Positions 14,553-34,590 are shown, counted from the stretch's first letter. The stretch: 64,000 bases of DNA from Candidatus Xenobium occultum (GCA_002423485.1 DIWH01000011.1:72667-136666); one strand, 5' to 3'. The notes: generated from the letters alone by a model not told the origin. Numbers and translations are program-made.

Positions 14553-14628
14553 TGGTGGAGCCAGTCGGACTCGAACCGACGGCCTCCTCCGTGCAAGGGA
14601 GGCGCTCTCCCAGCTGAGCTATGGCCCC
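14553..14628 (-). tRNA. tRNA-Ala(TGC)
   Basis: 76-nt cloverleaf with anticodon loop CTTGCAC, G3:U70 identity pair, T-loop TTCGAGT and encoded CCA. Confidence 0.9.
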
Positions 14629-14698
14629 AGGGTTCACCGGTAAAAACTGCCCCTATAGAAATGGGAGCGGCGGACCGCTCCCACTTCCAAGGCAGTTG

Positions 14699-14775
14699 TG
14701 GTGGGCTTAGCTGGACTCGAACCAGCGACCTCGTCCTTATCAGGGACGCGCTCTAACCACCTGAGCTACAAGCCC
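14699..14775 (-). tRNA. tRNA-Ile(GAT)
   Basis: 77-nt cloverleaf with anticodon loop CTGATAA, T-loop TTCGAGT and encoded CCA. Confidence 0.9.
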
Positions 14776-29822: not shown

Positions 29823-29887
29823 AGGACCCGGCCGCCCCAGCGTCATTCCGCCGGAGACCAGATCATCCTTGGTCGAGGAGGCGGACC

Positions 29888-30580
29888 TCACCGCTCTTCA
29901 GGTCGTAGACGGCTCCGACGATCTTGAGGGTCCCCTTCTCCACCGCCGGGGCCAGGATGGGGTAGGACTGCTTCAAGCGATCCACTGCCACCCGGACATT
30001 CATGTCGGTAGCGGCCTCCAGGGAATTGCCGCCCTGGGCCTTCGACTTGCGGGCGGCGGGGCGGATGGTGTCTACCAGGTGCTCGATGGAGCCCGGCAGG
30101 TCCCCGCCCCCCGGCGATGGTCTTCAAGGCTGCGTTGACCGCGCCACAACTGCTATGCCCCAAGACCATGATGAGTGGCGCCCCCAGGACAGCGTGGGAA
30201 AACTCCAGGCTGCCGATCACGTTGTGACCGGACAGGCCCACCGTGTTCCCCGCCACCCGCACCACGAACAGGTCTCCCAACCCCTGGTCGAAGAGGATCT
30301 CGACGGGCACCCGGCTATCCGCGCAGGCCAGGATGGAGGCGAAGGGGTGCTGAGCGGAAGCCACCCCCAGTCGCCGCGTGGCGCCACGGCCGCCACCGCC
30401 GGTCTTCTGCTCCTCGACGAACCGGACGTTGCCCTCCACCAGGGCCTTCAGCGCTGCGTCCGGCGTGCGCTTCACAGAAGCCCCACCCTGGGCGACGGCT
30501 GGCCTCGCCCCCGAGACGACGGCCGCGCCCATGGCGGCGGCCAGGCCCATCTTCAACAACTCGCGACGACTCTGGTCCAT
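29888..30580 (-). CDS. beta-class carbonic anhydrase with Tat signal peptide
   Basis: N-terminal twin-arginine motif SRRELLKMGL. Zinc-ligand motifs CADSRVP and HSSCGAV. Confidence 0.8.
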   Translation of the reverse strand: MDQSRRELLKMGLAAAMGAAVVSGARPAVAQGGASVKRTPDAALKALVEGNVRFVEEQKTGGGGRGATRRLGVASAQHPFASILACADSRVPVEILFDQGLGDLFVVRVAGNTVGLSGHNVIGSLEFSHAVLGAPLIMVLGHSSCGAVNAALKTIAGGRGPAGLHRAPGRHHPPRRPQVEGPGRQFPGGRYRHECPGGSGSLEAVLPHPGPGGGEGDPQDRRSRLRPEER

Positions 30581-30725: not shown

Positions 30726-30892
30726 GTTCCCGAATCGCTTTCCGAATCAAACACCAAGACACGCCGTCAACCCCCTGGAAGCGCCTCCCCTCCCCCTCTC
30801 CCCCATCCAAGTCGAAAGCCCCGTCGCGGCGGGGCTTTCCTTGTTGGTGCGGGAGGAGGGATTCGAACCCTCATGCCTTGCGGCGCAGGATT
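30726..30892. repeat. attL-like direct repeat containing a 48-nt tRNA-Leu 3' fragment (30845-30892, minus strand)
   Basis: Identical to 34388-34554 except for 4 substitutions. It includes the tRNA 3' half plus 119 bp of downstream flank with a hairpin. Confidence 0.7.
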
Positions 30893-32056
30893 CAAGACTT
30901 CCTCCCAGCACAGATACCTCGTGACGACCCGTATATTTTCTTCCACCGTCCGGACACTTTCCGAAATAATTTCCGATTCGGCCCAGGGCCTCCCTCAAAA
31001 GAGGGGTGGAAAAGTGGGCGTAGCGGTCCGTCATCTCGGGCGACTCGTGGCGGGCCAGCTCCTGGATCGTCTCACGGGGCACCCCGGCCATCCGCAGCCA
31101 GGTGCAGAAGGTGTGACGCAGGTCATGGAAGTGCAGCCCTTCGACTCCGGCCTTCCGGCAGAGCCCCTGGAATCTCTTGGTGACCGCGTTCGGAGCCCGG
31201 CCAGGGAAGACCCTCTCCCCCTTCTGGGGTGCTGAGGGCCGGACATGCGACAAGACCTCGACGGCCCGGGGATGCAGAGGCAACCACTCGTCCTCGTGCC
31301 GCTTCGAGGCGCGCACCCGAAACAGGCCTCGCGCCAGGTCCAGGTCCCTCCACTCAAGCCGACACAGTTCCGCCCGCCTCAACCCCGTCAGCAGCGCCAC
31401 CTCGATCATCCTCCAGAAATCCGGGTCGCATCGTTCACGGAGGCGATCCAGCTCGCCATCCTGGAGGAATCGCCTGCGCTTGTTGTTCTCGCGCAGCAGC
31501 GTGTTGCGTGGGACGGGCTGGTGCCGGGTCACCTGGTCGCGCTCGGCGAGATTGAAGAGACGACGCAGCATGGCCAGGCGGCGGTTGATGCTGGCGGGCT
31601 TGAAGGGGGTCCCGTAGCGGTCAGGGTCTTCGCCTTCGCCCGCATCCATGCGCGGATGTCCCCAGGCTGAATGCTGAGGACCCGTCGGTCTTCCCCCAGG
31701 GCCTCGAGCCACTCGGCGGCATACTGAGCGTAGTTCGGGCCGATGCCCTCCAGGGATACCATCTCGTCACTGAAGAGGCCCCACAGCCGCCCCAGGGTCA
31801 TCCCCTCATCGGGCGGAGCGGTCACACCCATCCTCTCCCCCATCTTGGCCCGCTCGTCAGCCAGTCGCTGGCGATGCAGTTCGGCCAGCGCGGCGTCCTT
31901 CGAGATGCCCACTGCCCGCTTGATGTCCCGCCTCTTTCCCGTGGCGTCCACCTCCGAGGTCCGAACCCCGTAGACCCGGATCCCGTCTTCCCTGTCCGCG
32001 AAAATCAGGCCGCGAGGGCCCTTCGGGACAGACCTCCACATGAAAGCCACTGGCAC
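30747..32056 (-). pseudogene. tyrosine recombinase/integrase, split by a frameshift
   Basis: The N-terminal part (frame of 31529..32056) carries integrase arm/core-binding-like sequence. The C-terminal part (frame of 30747..31712) carries the catalytic HDLRHTF...TDRYAH motif. The frames switch around 31601-31630, at a G5/C5 homopolymer. The 3' end reads into attL. Confidence 0.6.
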
Positions 32057-32152
32057 CTCCTGCAGGGGCCCGACCCGGAGCGGCGAACCTGCAGGGTGTC
32101 AGCACCTGCGGCGCCTGGGCTCCGGCCCGGGCGTTCGTGTTTGGAGGAAAGA

Positions 32153-32593
32153 TCACGCCGTCTTTTGGAAGCTGACCTCCAACACGCGACCGAAAGCCCG
32201 GGCGACCCTCTCCAGGGTGGACACCGTAGCGTTGCACTTCTCGGGGTCCTCCCAGCGCTGATAGGTCGAGAAGCTGACGCCCATCCTGGCCGCCGCCTGC
32301 TGCATCGTGAGGCCCGCCTTCTGGCGCTCGGAACGCACCATCAGGGCGACCTCTAGTCGCGCATCGGGATAGACCCACTCCCACCCCGCAGGAAGGCGGC
32401 CCTGCGTAGGAGCATCCAGTTCCTCTCCCGCGTCGATGCGCACCAGAAGCATTGTGGTCACGAGGTCGCCAGCCATTCGGCGCGCTTCCTCCAGCGTGTC
32501 GCCCTGGGTCATCTGGCCTCCGGCGATGTCCGGAACCTCAGCCAGCCACCAGTCATCCTCTTGGAAATACCTGACCTTGTAGCGCAACCTCAT
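32153..32593 (-). CDS. hicB: HicB-family antitoxin (RNase H-like fold + C-terminal HTH)
   Basis: Start MRLRYKVRYFQEDDWWLAEVPDIAGGQMTQGDTLEEA (typical HicB N-terminus). C-terminal helix-turn-helix TMQQAAARMGVSFSTYQRWE. ATGA overlap with the hicA stop. Confidence 0.7.
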   Translation of the reverse strand: MRLRYKVRYFQEDDWWLAEVPDIAGGQMTQGDTLEEARRMAGDLVTTMLLVRIDAGEELDAPTQGRLPAGWEWVYPDARLEVALMVRSERQKAGLTMQQAAARMGVSFSTYQRWEDPEKCNATVSTLERVARAFGRVLEVSFQKTA

Positions 32594-32778
32594 GGTCCAT
32601 CCTCCTCCGCCTTCCGGTCCTTCTGTTGCCACTGCCGGATGATGCCGGGGCGAATCTCCGTGTGCCGAGGGACCGCGAAGGTCTGCCGATGCCGCCCGTA
32701 AACATCGTGGTCGCCGCCGTGCCGGACGAATGACCACCCGGCGGCCTCGACCATCTTCAGGAACTCACGGCGCTTCAT
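32590..32778 (-). CDS. hicA: HicA-family mRNA interferase toxin
   Basis: MKRREFLKMVEAAGWSFVRHGGDHDVYGRHRQTFAVPRH... is the dsRBD-like HicA pattern. ATG 32778 is taken as the start because the predicted promoter -10 overlaps the ORF-track GTG 32793. Confidence 0.65.
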   Translation of the reverse strand: MKRREFLKMVEAAGWSFVRHGGDHDVYGRHRQTFAVPRHTEIRPGIIRQWQQKDRKAEEDGP

Positions 32779-32793
32779 CGACTTCACAGGCAC

Positions 32794-32822
32794 ACAATAA
32801 CGCTTTACTGCGTTCTTGTCAA
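32794..32822 (-). promoter_or_regulatory. sigma70-type promoter of hicAB with flanking 8-bp direct repeats (aacgcttt x2, candidate operator)
   Basis: On the minus strand there is TTGACA (plus-strand tgtcaa 32817-32822), a 17-nt spacer, and TATTGT (32794-32799). The repeats lie at 32799-32806 and 32821-32828. This is a locally AT-rich patch. Confidence 0.35.
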
Positions 32823-33156
32823 CGCTTTTATGCTGTGATTGGCATCATACCCTACGCCTCGCCCCATGCGGCCAGCCAGTCCCCGAACCAGCCCCTGACG
32901 CGTCTCGGCTCAGGGCCCTGGCGTCGCAGCATCTCCCGACTCAGGGCCCCGCAAGCGCAACAGGTATTTCGCGTCTGTCAGCTTGTTCTGCTCGCGGATG
33001 AACTGCCGCGAGGCTTGATGGTCGCAGCGTAGGCTCTCCAACTCGCGCCGCATCGAGGCCAGGGCCTCCGCCATCTCCGCCTGTCGCTCGTCGGCGCGGG
33101 TCTGGGACTGGTGGACCACGACGGCCCGCACCCGACTGGAGCCCGGCGCCTCGGTC

Positions 33157-33942
33157 GTGGTGCTCATGACCCGCTGGCATGACGACGACCTGGCCGGGCG
33201 CATCCTGCGCAACGCCCAGGAGTCTGGAGACGGCTGGGAGGTCCTGAACCTGCCCGCCCTGGCCGAGGAGGGAGACCCCCTGGGCCGGGAGCCCGGCGAG
33301 GCCCTCTGGCCAGAGCGCTACGACGTGGAGGCCCTGCAGGAAACCCGGCGCGAGGTGGGAGAGCGAACCTGGTCGGCGCTCTATCAGCAGCGCCCGACCG
33401 TGGACGAGGGCGGCTATTTCCAGCGCTCCTGGTGGCGCTACTACACGCGGCCCCCTGTGCGATTCGAAGAGGTCCTGCAGTCCTGGGACATGGCCTTCAA
33501 AGGCACGACCTCGAGCGACTACGTGGTGGGGCAGATCTGGGGCAGGAAGGGTGCTGACCGTTACCTGCTGGACCAGGTCCGTGGGCGATGGGACTTCCCG
33601 CGCACCCTGGATGCCGTGCGGGAACTGTCCTTCCGCTGGCCTGACGCCCGCACCAAGCTGGTTGAGGACAAGGCGAACGGCAGCGCGGTCATCGACACCC
33701 TCCGCCGCGAGATGCAGGGCCTGGTGGCCGTCGAGCCCGAGGGCGGGAAGGTGGCCAGGGCGGCCGCCGTCTCGCACCAGGTGGAGGGCGGCAACGTCTG
33801 GCTGCCAGCCCGGAGCATCGCCCCCGACGGAACGCCGGTCCTGGACCCCTGGGTGCGCGACCTGGTCGAGGAGGCGGCGGCCTTCCCGACCGGGGTGAAT
33901 GACGACCAGGTGGATGCCATGACGCACTGCCGTTTTTTTTAA
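33157..33942 (+). pseudogene. phage terminase large subunit, C-terminal nuclease half only (ATPase domain missing)
   Basis: LMTRWHDDDLAGRIL...ALWPERY...YQQRP...EDKANGSAVIDTL...EGGNVWLP...FPTGVNDDQVDAMT matches the terminase_6C/RNaseH-like domain. The upstream in-frame sequence is unrelated. The gene ends CRFF* inside a T8 run. Confidence 0.6.
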
Positions 33943-34213
33943 CCAGCCAGTCGAGCTCGACCTTCAACTGCCCGACCTCCTGGTAGAGGCGAGCGATCAA
34001 GGCCTCCCGTGCCGCCTCAACCCTGGAGGCCGACGCCGGGTTGGCAAAGACCTGTGCCAGCCCCTCAGCCGCCGTCTTCTTCCACTGGCTAACCTGCACT
34101 GGGTGAACCTCGACGTCAGCCGCGATCTCGTTGACGGTTCGCCGCTCCTTGAGGGCCTCGAGCGCCACCCTTGCTTTGAACTCCGCCGTGTGCTTCCTGC
34201 GCGTCTTGTCCAT
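33919..34213 (-). mobile_element. IS3-family transposase OrfA remnant (HTH + leucine zipper) truncated at its A-run frameshift site; no OrfB
   Basis: MDKTRRKHTAEFKARVALEALKERRTVNEIAADVEVHPVQVSQWKK...LKVELDWLVKK is classic IS3 OrfA. It ends at the A8 slippery run (33933-33940). Beyond that point the sequence is antisense to the terminase fragment. Confidence 0.6.
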
Positions 34214-34387
34214 TGCCGGCCATCCTTTCGTTGTTCACAGGCCGGTCATGATAGTGTTAGCTAAACACCGTGTCTAGTTTTCTGGGGCCACTATAATCGT
34301 GTCCGGGGTCATGAGACTCCGGGCCTGACCCACGACCATCACCTGACCACAGAGCCCCTCTCCCCTGACCGGGAGGGGGGCTTTCCG

Positions 34388-34554
34388 GTTCCCGAATCGC
34401 TTTCCGAATCAAACACCAAAACACGCCGTCAAACCCCTGGAAGCGCCTCCCCTCCTCCTCTCCCCCATCCAAGTCGAAAGCCCCGTCGCGGCGGGGCTTT
34501 CATTGTTGGTGCGGGAGGAGGGATTCGAACCCTCATGCCTTGCGGCGCAGGATT
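34388..34554. repeat. attR-like direct repeat overlapping the 3' part of the intact tRNA-Leu
   Basis: Partner of the 30726-30892 repeat. Confidence 0.7.
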
Positions 34555-34590
34555 TTAAGTCCCGTGCGTCTGCCGTTTCGCCACTCCCGC
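34507..34590 (-). tRNA. tRNA-Leu(TAA), type II with long variable arm
   Basis: 84-nt cloverleaf with anticodon loop CTTAAAA, long variable arm, T-loop TTCGAAT and encoded CCA. Confidence 0.9.

Follow-up and report, generated by a model that had tools for sequence, protein, structure and literature searches.

A probable decayed prophage at a re-used tRNA-Leu(TAA) attachment site of Candidatus Xenobium occultum

We studied a 64,000-nucleotide stretch of DNA from Candidatus Xenobium occultum (GCA_002423485.1 DIWH01000011.1:72667-136666; the whole stretch is called the window, and positions are counted from its first letter), in which a 3.7-kb region beside a tRNA-Leu(TAA) gene is enclosed by two unusually long direct repeats. 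We consider it probable that this region is the fossil of a temperate tailed phage, here named P1, and that the long repeat reflects the landing of P1 on the leftover attachment scar (an orphan attL) of an earlier related phage. The repeat would measure 167 bp instead of 48 bp because the target was such an orphan attL and not a naive tRNA gene. Most likely we are dealing with the ordinary decay of a prophage, at a tRNA attachment site that served more than once, and the process is already known. The anatomy of the locus, its homologies, the polymorphism in relatives and the motif statistics were observed directly; the order of events is our reconstruction.

Direct repeats and the attachment arm beyond the tRNA

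The integration target, tRNA-Leu(TAA), lies intact at 34507-34590 on the minus strand, as identified by ARAGORN and Rfam. A repeat finder and pairwise alignment both delimited direct repeats of 167 bp at 30726-30892 (DR-L) and 34388-34554 (DR-R), with a weak extension to 175 nt at 96% reported by the repeat finder. These results bear out the preliminary description of the DNA, which had reported 167-bp repeats with four differences. Each copy consists of the 3′ 48 nt of the tRNA gene plus 119 bp beyond the tRNA 3′ end. By the sequence, identity within the tRNA sets in at loop positions 37-38, directly past the anticodon, and extends over the 3′ 48 nt. All four mismatches (30758/34420 G/A, 30771/34433 C/A, 30794/34456 C/T and 30840/34502 C/A) fall in the 119-bp part, with none in the tRNA part. 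DR-L is made up of an orphan copy of what we read as the P′ arm of the phage attachment site attP (30726-30844), followed by the displaced 3′ 48 nt of tRNA-Leu (30845-30892, gene sense minus), and a G+C-rich terminator-like hairpin lies at 30814-30839, directly 3′ of the tRNA fragment. Similarly, DR-R contains the P′ arm (34388-34506), with a doubled motif at 34389-34410 and a hairpin at 34476-34501, joined to the 3′ 48 nt of the intact tRNA. The hairpin GAAAGCCCCGTCGCGGCGGGGCTTTC is present in both copies.

An assembly duplication, or an ancestral non-mobile region shared by relatives, had been named beforehand as the alternatives to an integrated element. The source is a metagenome-assembled genome, and Draft_10000354, an older JGI contig of this locus, appears to be a chimera (see below), which might favour an artefact. 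However, the locus was 100% identical in ENA ERZ27315036 k141_264683 and in JGI 3300002498 TOLCLC_10009437, and JGI 3300001567 Draft_10000892 was 100% identical as far as that contig extends, which is the right part. In the Logan assembly of SRR5323138, two flanking contigs end ~30 nt inside each repeat copy, as expected of a true repeat. Because the sequence is identical in three independent assemblies and the Logan contigs break inside the copies, which moreover differ at four positions, we conclude that the repeat is real and not an assembly duplication. An ancestral region is contradicted by an element-free allele in a sister species, described below. Taken together, an artefact or an ancestral non-mobile region is scarcely credible.

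The 119 bp beyond the tRNA had been described as its downstream flank carrying a hairpin. Length and hairpin stand, but the flank itself is probably the P′ arm of the phage attP and not host DNA. We read it in this way because of a break in homology with a sibling prophage, a recurring doubled motif and a scar in the sister species. The sibling, P2, is a prophage of at least 25 kb (about 25 kb) in the same genome, on a 179-kb MEGAHIT contig (ENA ERZ27315036 k141_283438), and the same sample carries the window-type locus on another contig. In this MEGAHIT contig, as in the JGI contig Draft_10000354, P2 borders at its right end on a tRNA-Val(TAC)-Glu-Met cluster. Homology between P1 and P2 stops at 34382, ~6 bp from the repeat start at 34388, and P2 then has a different arm of ~130 bp up to tRNA-Val, which carries its own 12-bp-spaced doublet (GGTGTCTATTC-t-GGTGTCCATTC) at 93-116 bp from the tRNA 3′ end, against 97-118 bp in P1. 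The homology picks up again directly upstream of the int start codon, even though the integrase genes themselves, int1 and int2, differ; the segment at 32055-32148 is 92.7% identical to the region upstream of the unrelated int2 and marks the left boundary of the swapped int-attP module. Since the homology breaks at the arm edge and at the int start, we regard int and both arms as one exchangeable module.

The doubled motif was evaluated across the whole window. The TTTCCGAATC doublet with 12-bp spacing occurs three times, always on the plus strand: once in each repeat copy (30727 and 34389) and, independently of these, at 30958, where int has its 3′ end. In 60 random 64-kb sequences there was none. 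The copy at the outer end of the orphan P′ arm (30727-30748, plus strand) reads TTCCCGAATC-gc-TTTCCGAATC and represents putative arm-type integrase sites. The attP P arm (30893-30990) overlaps the 3′ tail of the int reading frame and carries a co-oriented doubled motif at 30958-30979, TTTCCGAAAT-aa-TTTCCGATTC. Co-oriented doubled motifs in both attP arms of another integrase clade have been described as plausible sites of the integrase arm domain (PMC10111431), and we infer that the P1 integrase would bind its doublets.

Alternatively, the 119 bp could be the native flank of tRNA-Leu, picked up by an ancestor of the phage through imprecise excision, so that integration at a naive site would duplicate 167 bp. 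Long identity blocks, of up to ~250 bp, have been described, including ones by which the target gene is restored (PMC10111431). Moreover, the block holds the tRNA terminator hairpin, a plausible host feature, DR-L runs straight into sequence with no recognisable phage homology, and a naive tRNA-Leu site of the window's own species was not found. On the other hand, the doublet of the block recurs beside int, in phage-only DNA; P2 has an analogous arm of different sequence and the same geometry; and the empty site of the sister species is short of ~100 bp of the block and has a phage last-gene remnant beside it. On this evidence, flank capture is unlikely. Of the three origins that the preliminary description had offered for the long repeat, tandem or secondary integration is thus the favoured one, and capture of the flank fits less well.

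Phage remnants and the sibling prophage P2

Inside the repeats, a tyrosine integrase pseudogene, int1 (30747-32056, minus strand), starts with GTG at 32056, and its reading frame runs without a stop until 30747, inside DR-L. It is split into two open reading frames (ORFs) matching PF00589 (E 3.7e-29) and phrog_1 (E 8e-62). The frameshift noticed earlier was traced by alignment with two relatives to a 1-nt deletion, one C missing from a CCC run at ~31620. The catalytic residues R...HxxR...Y are present; in the translation of the repaired frame they appear as TGLRRAEL, HDLRHT and RYAH. Besides the tyrosine recombinase catalytic domain, the protein has a SAM-like core-binding domain. We also observed that the reading frame continues beyond the catalytic tyrosine (30747-30960, minus strand) for ~90 codons without a stop, crossing the P arm and the tRNA fragment and reaching into the arm, which may be chance in a high-GC genome or the result of a lost stop codon. 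The element was found to contain no replication, mobilisation or excisionase gene. Because int1 is frameshifted and no excisionase is recognisable, the element is unable to excise by itself; RecA-dependent loss across the 167-bp repeats is conceivable.

To the right of the hicAB genes (see below), a non-coding stretch at 32850-33105 is common to P1 and P2, with 32907-33040 identical, and a ~60-bp segment within it (32874-32933) also follows the toxin-antitoxin (TA) cassettes of P2 and of the sister species. It is followed by a fragment of the terminase large subunit gene (33106-33926, plus strand), which is without the ~113 N-terminal and the last ~11-25 residues and aligns to residues 114-408 of a 419-aa relative. 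The fragment matches the C-terminal nuclease domain (PF17289, E 1.2e-13; TIGR01630, 73.8 bits with a cut-off of 41.65). The N-terminal ATPase region is not covered; full-length homologues are mostly ~370-457 aa long and match PF03237, and the missing region is the place of the Walker A motif in full-length TerL proteins. The window was said to hold half a terminase. Indeed only the C-terminal part remains, but this is not the outcome of local erosion alone, since P2 shares the same N-terminal truncation.

The terminase fragment ends against an IS3-family stump (33927-34295, minus strand), which comprises a left end, a promoter-like site and OrfA (34213-33929) and is cut just after an A8 run (33933-33940). 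OrfA matches PF01527 (HTH_Tnp_1, E 1.9e-9) and positions 1-81 of the 369 in NF033516, the N-terminal part. Neither OrfB nor an rve domain nor a right end was found in the stump, whose sequence ends at 33927 against the terminase, and there is no second copy in the 64-kb window or in the compared loci. As OrfB and the second terminal inverted repeat are absent, this piece is a stump and not an insertion sequence (IS), in keeping with the IS3 OrfA stump of the preliminary description. By the limits of P2 homology, it marks the junction of a ~21-kb deletion. Beyond it we recognised a 92-bp piece that had been overlooked, the phage right end (34296-34387, plus strand), which contains the last 10 codons and the stop of a conserved 141-aa last gene (34296-34328) and a terminator hairpin (34355-34380). 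The match to P2, at 92% identity, spans 87 bp (34296-34382), of which the first 33 nt are the end of that gene.

P2 shows what the window has lost. Its left part carries int2 (of the Int_N type, differing from int1), hicA2, an HTH antitoxin gene, two small ORFs and the terminase with the same N-terminal truncation, followed by late genes for portal, Mu-F, scaffold, decoration, capsid, connector, tail, a 1413-aa tape measure and holin and by the 141-aa last gene. Window segments 33041-33926 and 34296-34382 match the two ends of this ~21-kb late block, and by the P2 map ~21.2 kb (including a 1.3-kb IS3 element in P2) are missing between 33926 and 34296. Window 32850-33926 is 93.5% identical to true P2 (L035 2698-3774), and the truncated terminase gene terL′ of P2 is 92.5% identical to window 33041-33926. 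At 32907-33040 the divergence of the two prophages is 0%, and it climbs to ~10% further right; the terL′ frames differ at 65 positions, 46 of them third codon positions, with 12 of 273 residues changed. From these alignments, the pattern looks like recent recombination in the junction region between prophages whose terminases had diverged under purifying selection. P2 was observed to be without terS, the TerL ATPase N-terminus and replication genes, and to carry one IS3 insertion and a long late region free of frameshifts; judged by its gene content, it appears unable to package DNA.

A wider search for relatives gave few results. A more distant prophage, P3 (GCA_032942435.1), has a complete terS-terL-portal-MuF-capsid-tail order with a 419-aa terL, and its TerL is ~50% identical at the protein level. 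The preliminary description had proposed a search for the parent phage with the terminase and integrase fragments; among cultured phages there was no close parent, the best TerL match being 55% and the best integrase match 31%. The integrase search of genome contigs gave three loci only: the sister species, a contig of 2.2 kb and a match of 30% identity from Ktedonobacteraceae. Viral contigs contained no match to int1 or int2, and none carried the 35-nt tRNA core or the P2 doublet; exact-pattern scans for the hairpin plus arm found none in metagenome contigs and none in viral contigs.

One public contig had to be set aside. An exact look-up of HicB led to JGI 3300001567 Draft_10000354, where the terminase runs on into late genes. 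We rejected this contig as a longer allele of the window locus. It differs from the window at 66 positions, every one of them within 33041-33926, and in a different sample the MEGAHIT assembly has this prophage at tRNA-Val, with an integrase of its own. Draft_10000354 joins P2 late genes to the hicAB-int-host side of P1, switching from P2 to P1 within the 134-bp exact stretch 32907-33040 common to both loci. It is probably an assembly chimera and less likely a recombinant. The viral genome IMGVR_UViG_3300001567_000264, cut from this contig, inherits the join and starts in P1 sequence; we flag both the probably chimeric public contig and the IMG/VR genome derived from it.

Alleles of a sister species and the proposed history

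A sister species was found via the CDF-transporter cluster, with ~86% nucleotide identity in host genes. Its occupied allele (L024, with many similar contigs) has a ~2.2-kb remnant at tRNA-Leu in the order 3′-truncated int′, divergent hicAB of opposite orientation, the end of the 141-aa gene (its last 55 codons) with the terminator, the same 119-bp arm and tRNA-Leu. The int′ gene ends at a CAGAGCCCCT microhomology (L024 11468-11477 versus window 31159-31168), and the displaced tRNA half is lost: a deletion between two CAGAGCCCCT copies, one in int and one in an older phage scar, removed the int 3′ end, attR and the displaced half. This remnant thus records a second and independent erosion that ended at int′-hicAB. 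A scan of metagenome contigs with the tRNA 5′ half found only three more copies of this occupied allele.

The other allele, L025 (ERZ2931041 NODE_211), has the order CDF, small ORF, tRNA-Leu and GGDEF. A comparison with the empty site of relatives had been suggested earlier, and this allele is indeed without the element, though scarred by a remnant of the phage last gene. After the tRNA and the hairpin, CTCCCCCATCC is fused to CTCCGCGCCTGACCCA...CAGAGCCCCT, which is the last-gene stop-codon region with half of the terminator. By its sequence, this "empty" allele is an attL scar with an internal deletion of ~100 bp between CCTCTCCCC microhomologies. Since the site is polymorphic between alleles, the content of the element is not ancestral. 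The earlier view of a prophage eroded down to its addiction module gains support from the P2 late genes missing here and from the independent erosion in the sister species.

We also weighed the possibility that int-hicAB is a real integrative mini-island or satellite and that the phage pieces are debris of a tandem-integrated neighbour. The sister species carries only int′-hicAB and the right end, and three int1 variants have three different cargos upstream of int (hicAB on the minus strand, divergent hicAB of opposite orientation and a different gene on the opposite strand). However, int is dead or truncated in both small versions, both end in the same last-gene remnant joined directly to the P′ arm, P2 has the same int-TA-terL′ order continuous with a full late region, and replication, mobilisation and excisionase genes are all absent. 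A minimal mobile element is therefore very unlikely.

For the decayed prophage at a re-used site, we propose the following history. P1, with a heterobivalent lambda-type tyrosine integrase, would have inserted into the anticodon stem-loop of tRNA-Leu(TAA). Its reconstructed attP of ~253 bp would run from the phage right end through the 119-bp P′ arm, the tRNA 3′ 48 nt, the crossover and the P arm to int. The P′ arm would carry a doubled TTTCCGAATC site at its outer end and the terminator hairpin, and a second doubled site would lie in the P arm, 66-87 bp away. Integration would swap the 3′ half of the tRNA and its terminator for the phage copies. If a P′ arm was present at the target tRNA beforehand, left by a related prophage that had come earlier or belonging to a tandem copy of P1 itself, the displaced copy DR-L would be the core plus the old P′ arm. 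By another route, two copies may have integrated in tandem, and later deletion of one would have left core plus P′ on both sides. Either an orphan-attL target or a tandem pair predicts exactly a 167-bp repeat with the differences confined to the arm. The arm, the doublets and the sister scar argue that this tRNA-Leu site was used repeatedly and that old prophages leave their tRNA-proximal junction. In the later decay of P1, the early region and the terminase N-terminus would have gone, a truncation common with P2; an IS3-family element would have inserted into the last gene, a ~21-kb deletion would then have fused the middle of the IS to the terminase 3′ end, and the 1-nt deletion would have inactivated int.

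Several points weigh against this history. Nothing phage-like was recognisable left of DR-L (30726), so the removal of the earlier element must have stopped right at its arm's outer edge, a somewhat coincidental outcome. What the target looked like prior to the last integration is deduced, as the search found no tRNA-Leu site in the window's own species that had never been occupied. The comparison with P2 covers its right junction and the int2 side, and it is at the left att junction that a core-only repeat would differ from core plus arm. The doublets, which are predicted from sequence to be integrase arm sites, were defined after the fact from one arm. Residues 1-100 of int1 had no Pfam match, and a single-sequence AlphaFold2 model of this N-terminus gave three strands and a helix at low confidence (mean pLDDT 42.9). 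The scans of viral contigs yielded no free phage contig with a P1-type attP. Finally, the retention of a TA module in three remnants, discussed below, could simply reflect its position beside int.

The hicAB module, related systems and minor observations

The hicAB genes reported earlier were found intact. The hicB antitoxin gene (32153-32593, minus strand) encodes a HicB-like N-terminal domain and an HTH_3 domain, and its start overlaps the stop of the hicA toxin gene (32590-32793, minus strand) in an ATGA, read from the sequence. A promoter-like TTGACA-17-TATTGT lies upstream of hicA at 32822-32794. HicA matched PF07927 (34.5 bits, cut-off 27) and phrog_353 (E 1.3e-12). In HicB, HTH_3 scored above its cut-off (34.7 bits) and PF15919 below (22.4 bits, cut-off 27), and the protein matched the HicB-like families phrog_497 (E 3.4e-8) and phrog_8245 (E 4e-6). 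hicAB is the only intact operon of the element, and a TA module beside int also survives in P2 and in the sister-species remnant. By analogy with other TA modules, this retention is consistent with, though not proof of, an addiction effect; selection against deletions in which the antitoxin is lost may be the reason why hicAB has survived.

The slot just upstream of int was observed to hold variable cargo (window 32057-32933; L024 12361-13250; L031 1-1049; L035 1035-1941). In the window it contains hicAB co-oriented with int, and in the sister species hicAB of opposite orientation, estimated to be roughly 50% identical. A third int1 allele (L031), which is free of the frameshift, has a gene on the opposite strand there, presumably Gp37/Gp68-like, a putative label only. 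The slot is flanked by the conserved segments at 32055-32148 and 32874-32933, the latter of which occurs twice in P2. Two adjacent imperfect repeats of ~29 nt, TCTCGGCTCAGGGCCCTGGCGTCGCAGCA and TCCCGACTCAGGGCCCCGCAAGCGCAACA, lie upstream of hicA at 32903-32962.

The locus resembles lambda-type heterobivalent integrase systems at tRNA anticodon stem-loops in its catalytic and SAM-like core-binding domains and in an identity block that runs from the anticodon loop through the tRNA 3′ end. The doublets of P1 lie ~66-87 and 145-166 bp from the crossover, compared with 81 and 132 bp in the HE-PICI attP (PMC10111431). It differs in that the chromosomal repeat includes the whole P′ arm, which naive integration does not duplicate, and in that int1 is ~30% identical to any cultured-phage integrase and comes from a host of the uncultured class Xenobia.

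Tandem accretion at att sites and the stabilisation of integrated elements by TA modules have both been described (PMC8978831). Tandem accretion and cis-mobilizable elements (CIMEs), for which Pavlovic 2004 and Bellanger 2011/2014 are cited, likewise involve successive integrations into a resident att site, deletions and integrase-defective remnants flanked by att sites. Here, by contrast, all that is left of the resident element is a bare attL arm, and we are dealing with prophages and not with integrative and conjugative or integrative mobilizable elements (ICE/IME). Similarly, the cryptic prophages stabilised by TA modules that are cited in PMC8978831 (ParE/CopA of CP4So and HipAB of CGI48) share with P1 an intact TA module beside the integrase of a decayed element; in P1 the module is hicAB, a putative stabiliser, and three related remnants carry different hicAB alleles and orientations. 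P1 also resembles P2, with the same terL′ truncation, a terL′ and right end 92-93% identical to those of P1 and a TA module beside int, whereas P2 has another integrase (Int_N type), another arm, a tRNA-Val site and ~21 kb of retained late genes.

An overlong att repeat need not be an oddity of a single element but can document several integrations in succession, which is useful where automated island callers report extended identity blocks. We further speculate, while rating the idea as rather improbable, that orphan attL scars (tRNA 3′ half plus P′ arm) act as improved landing pads for later related phages. If so, the extra 119-bp homology and the arm sites would favour re-lysogenisation through the integrase or RecA, even by int-defective relatives, and a tRNA site with decayed prophages would keep a "memory" by which later integrations are steered. 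This would also account for the clean int-attP swaps between P1 and P2, both with an ATPase-less terminase under purifying selection. To the extent of our search, no attP/attB architecture of a Candidatus Xenobia phage had been dissected before; the one given here comprises the core, both arms and a candidate arm-site motif. The apparently uninterrupted integrase relative in L031 could in principle be tried out as a genetic tool.

Some observations concern the host DNA. The beta-carbonic anhydrase gene adjoining DR-L (29863-30580, minus strand) looks like a pseudogene: of the 156 positions in the Pro_CA profile, its 230-aa ORF covers only 2-74, and a separate 46-aa ORF contains the C-terminal part. 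The split is the same in all assemblies, and the sister species has a different ORF of 111/122 aa there and no carbonic anhydrase gene. A tRNA-Ala(TGC)/tRNA-Ile(GAT) pair at 14553-14775 (minus strand) stands alone, with no rRNA found by Rfam in the window; such a pair is normally located in the 16S-23S spacer. Identical or near-identical proteins are named "Candidatus Xenobium sp.", a genus in the class Xenobia of the Eremiobacterota/Vulcanimicrobiota, which to our knowledge is represented only by metagenome-assembled genomes. Several public records of such genomes that carry these Xenobium sequences are labelled "Burkholderiales bacterium" (e.g. NMA27570.1 and CAZQPM010000514.1), likely through a binning or taxonomy error.

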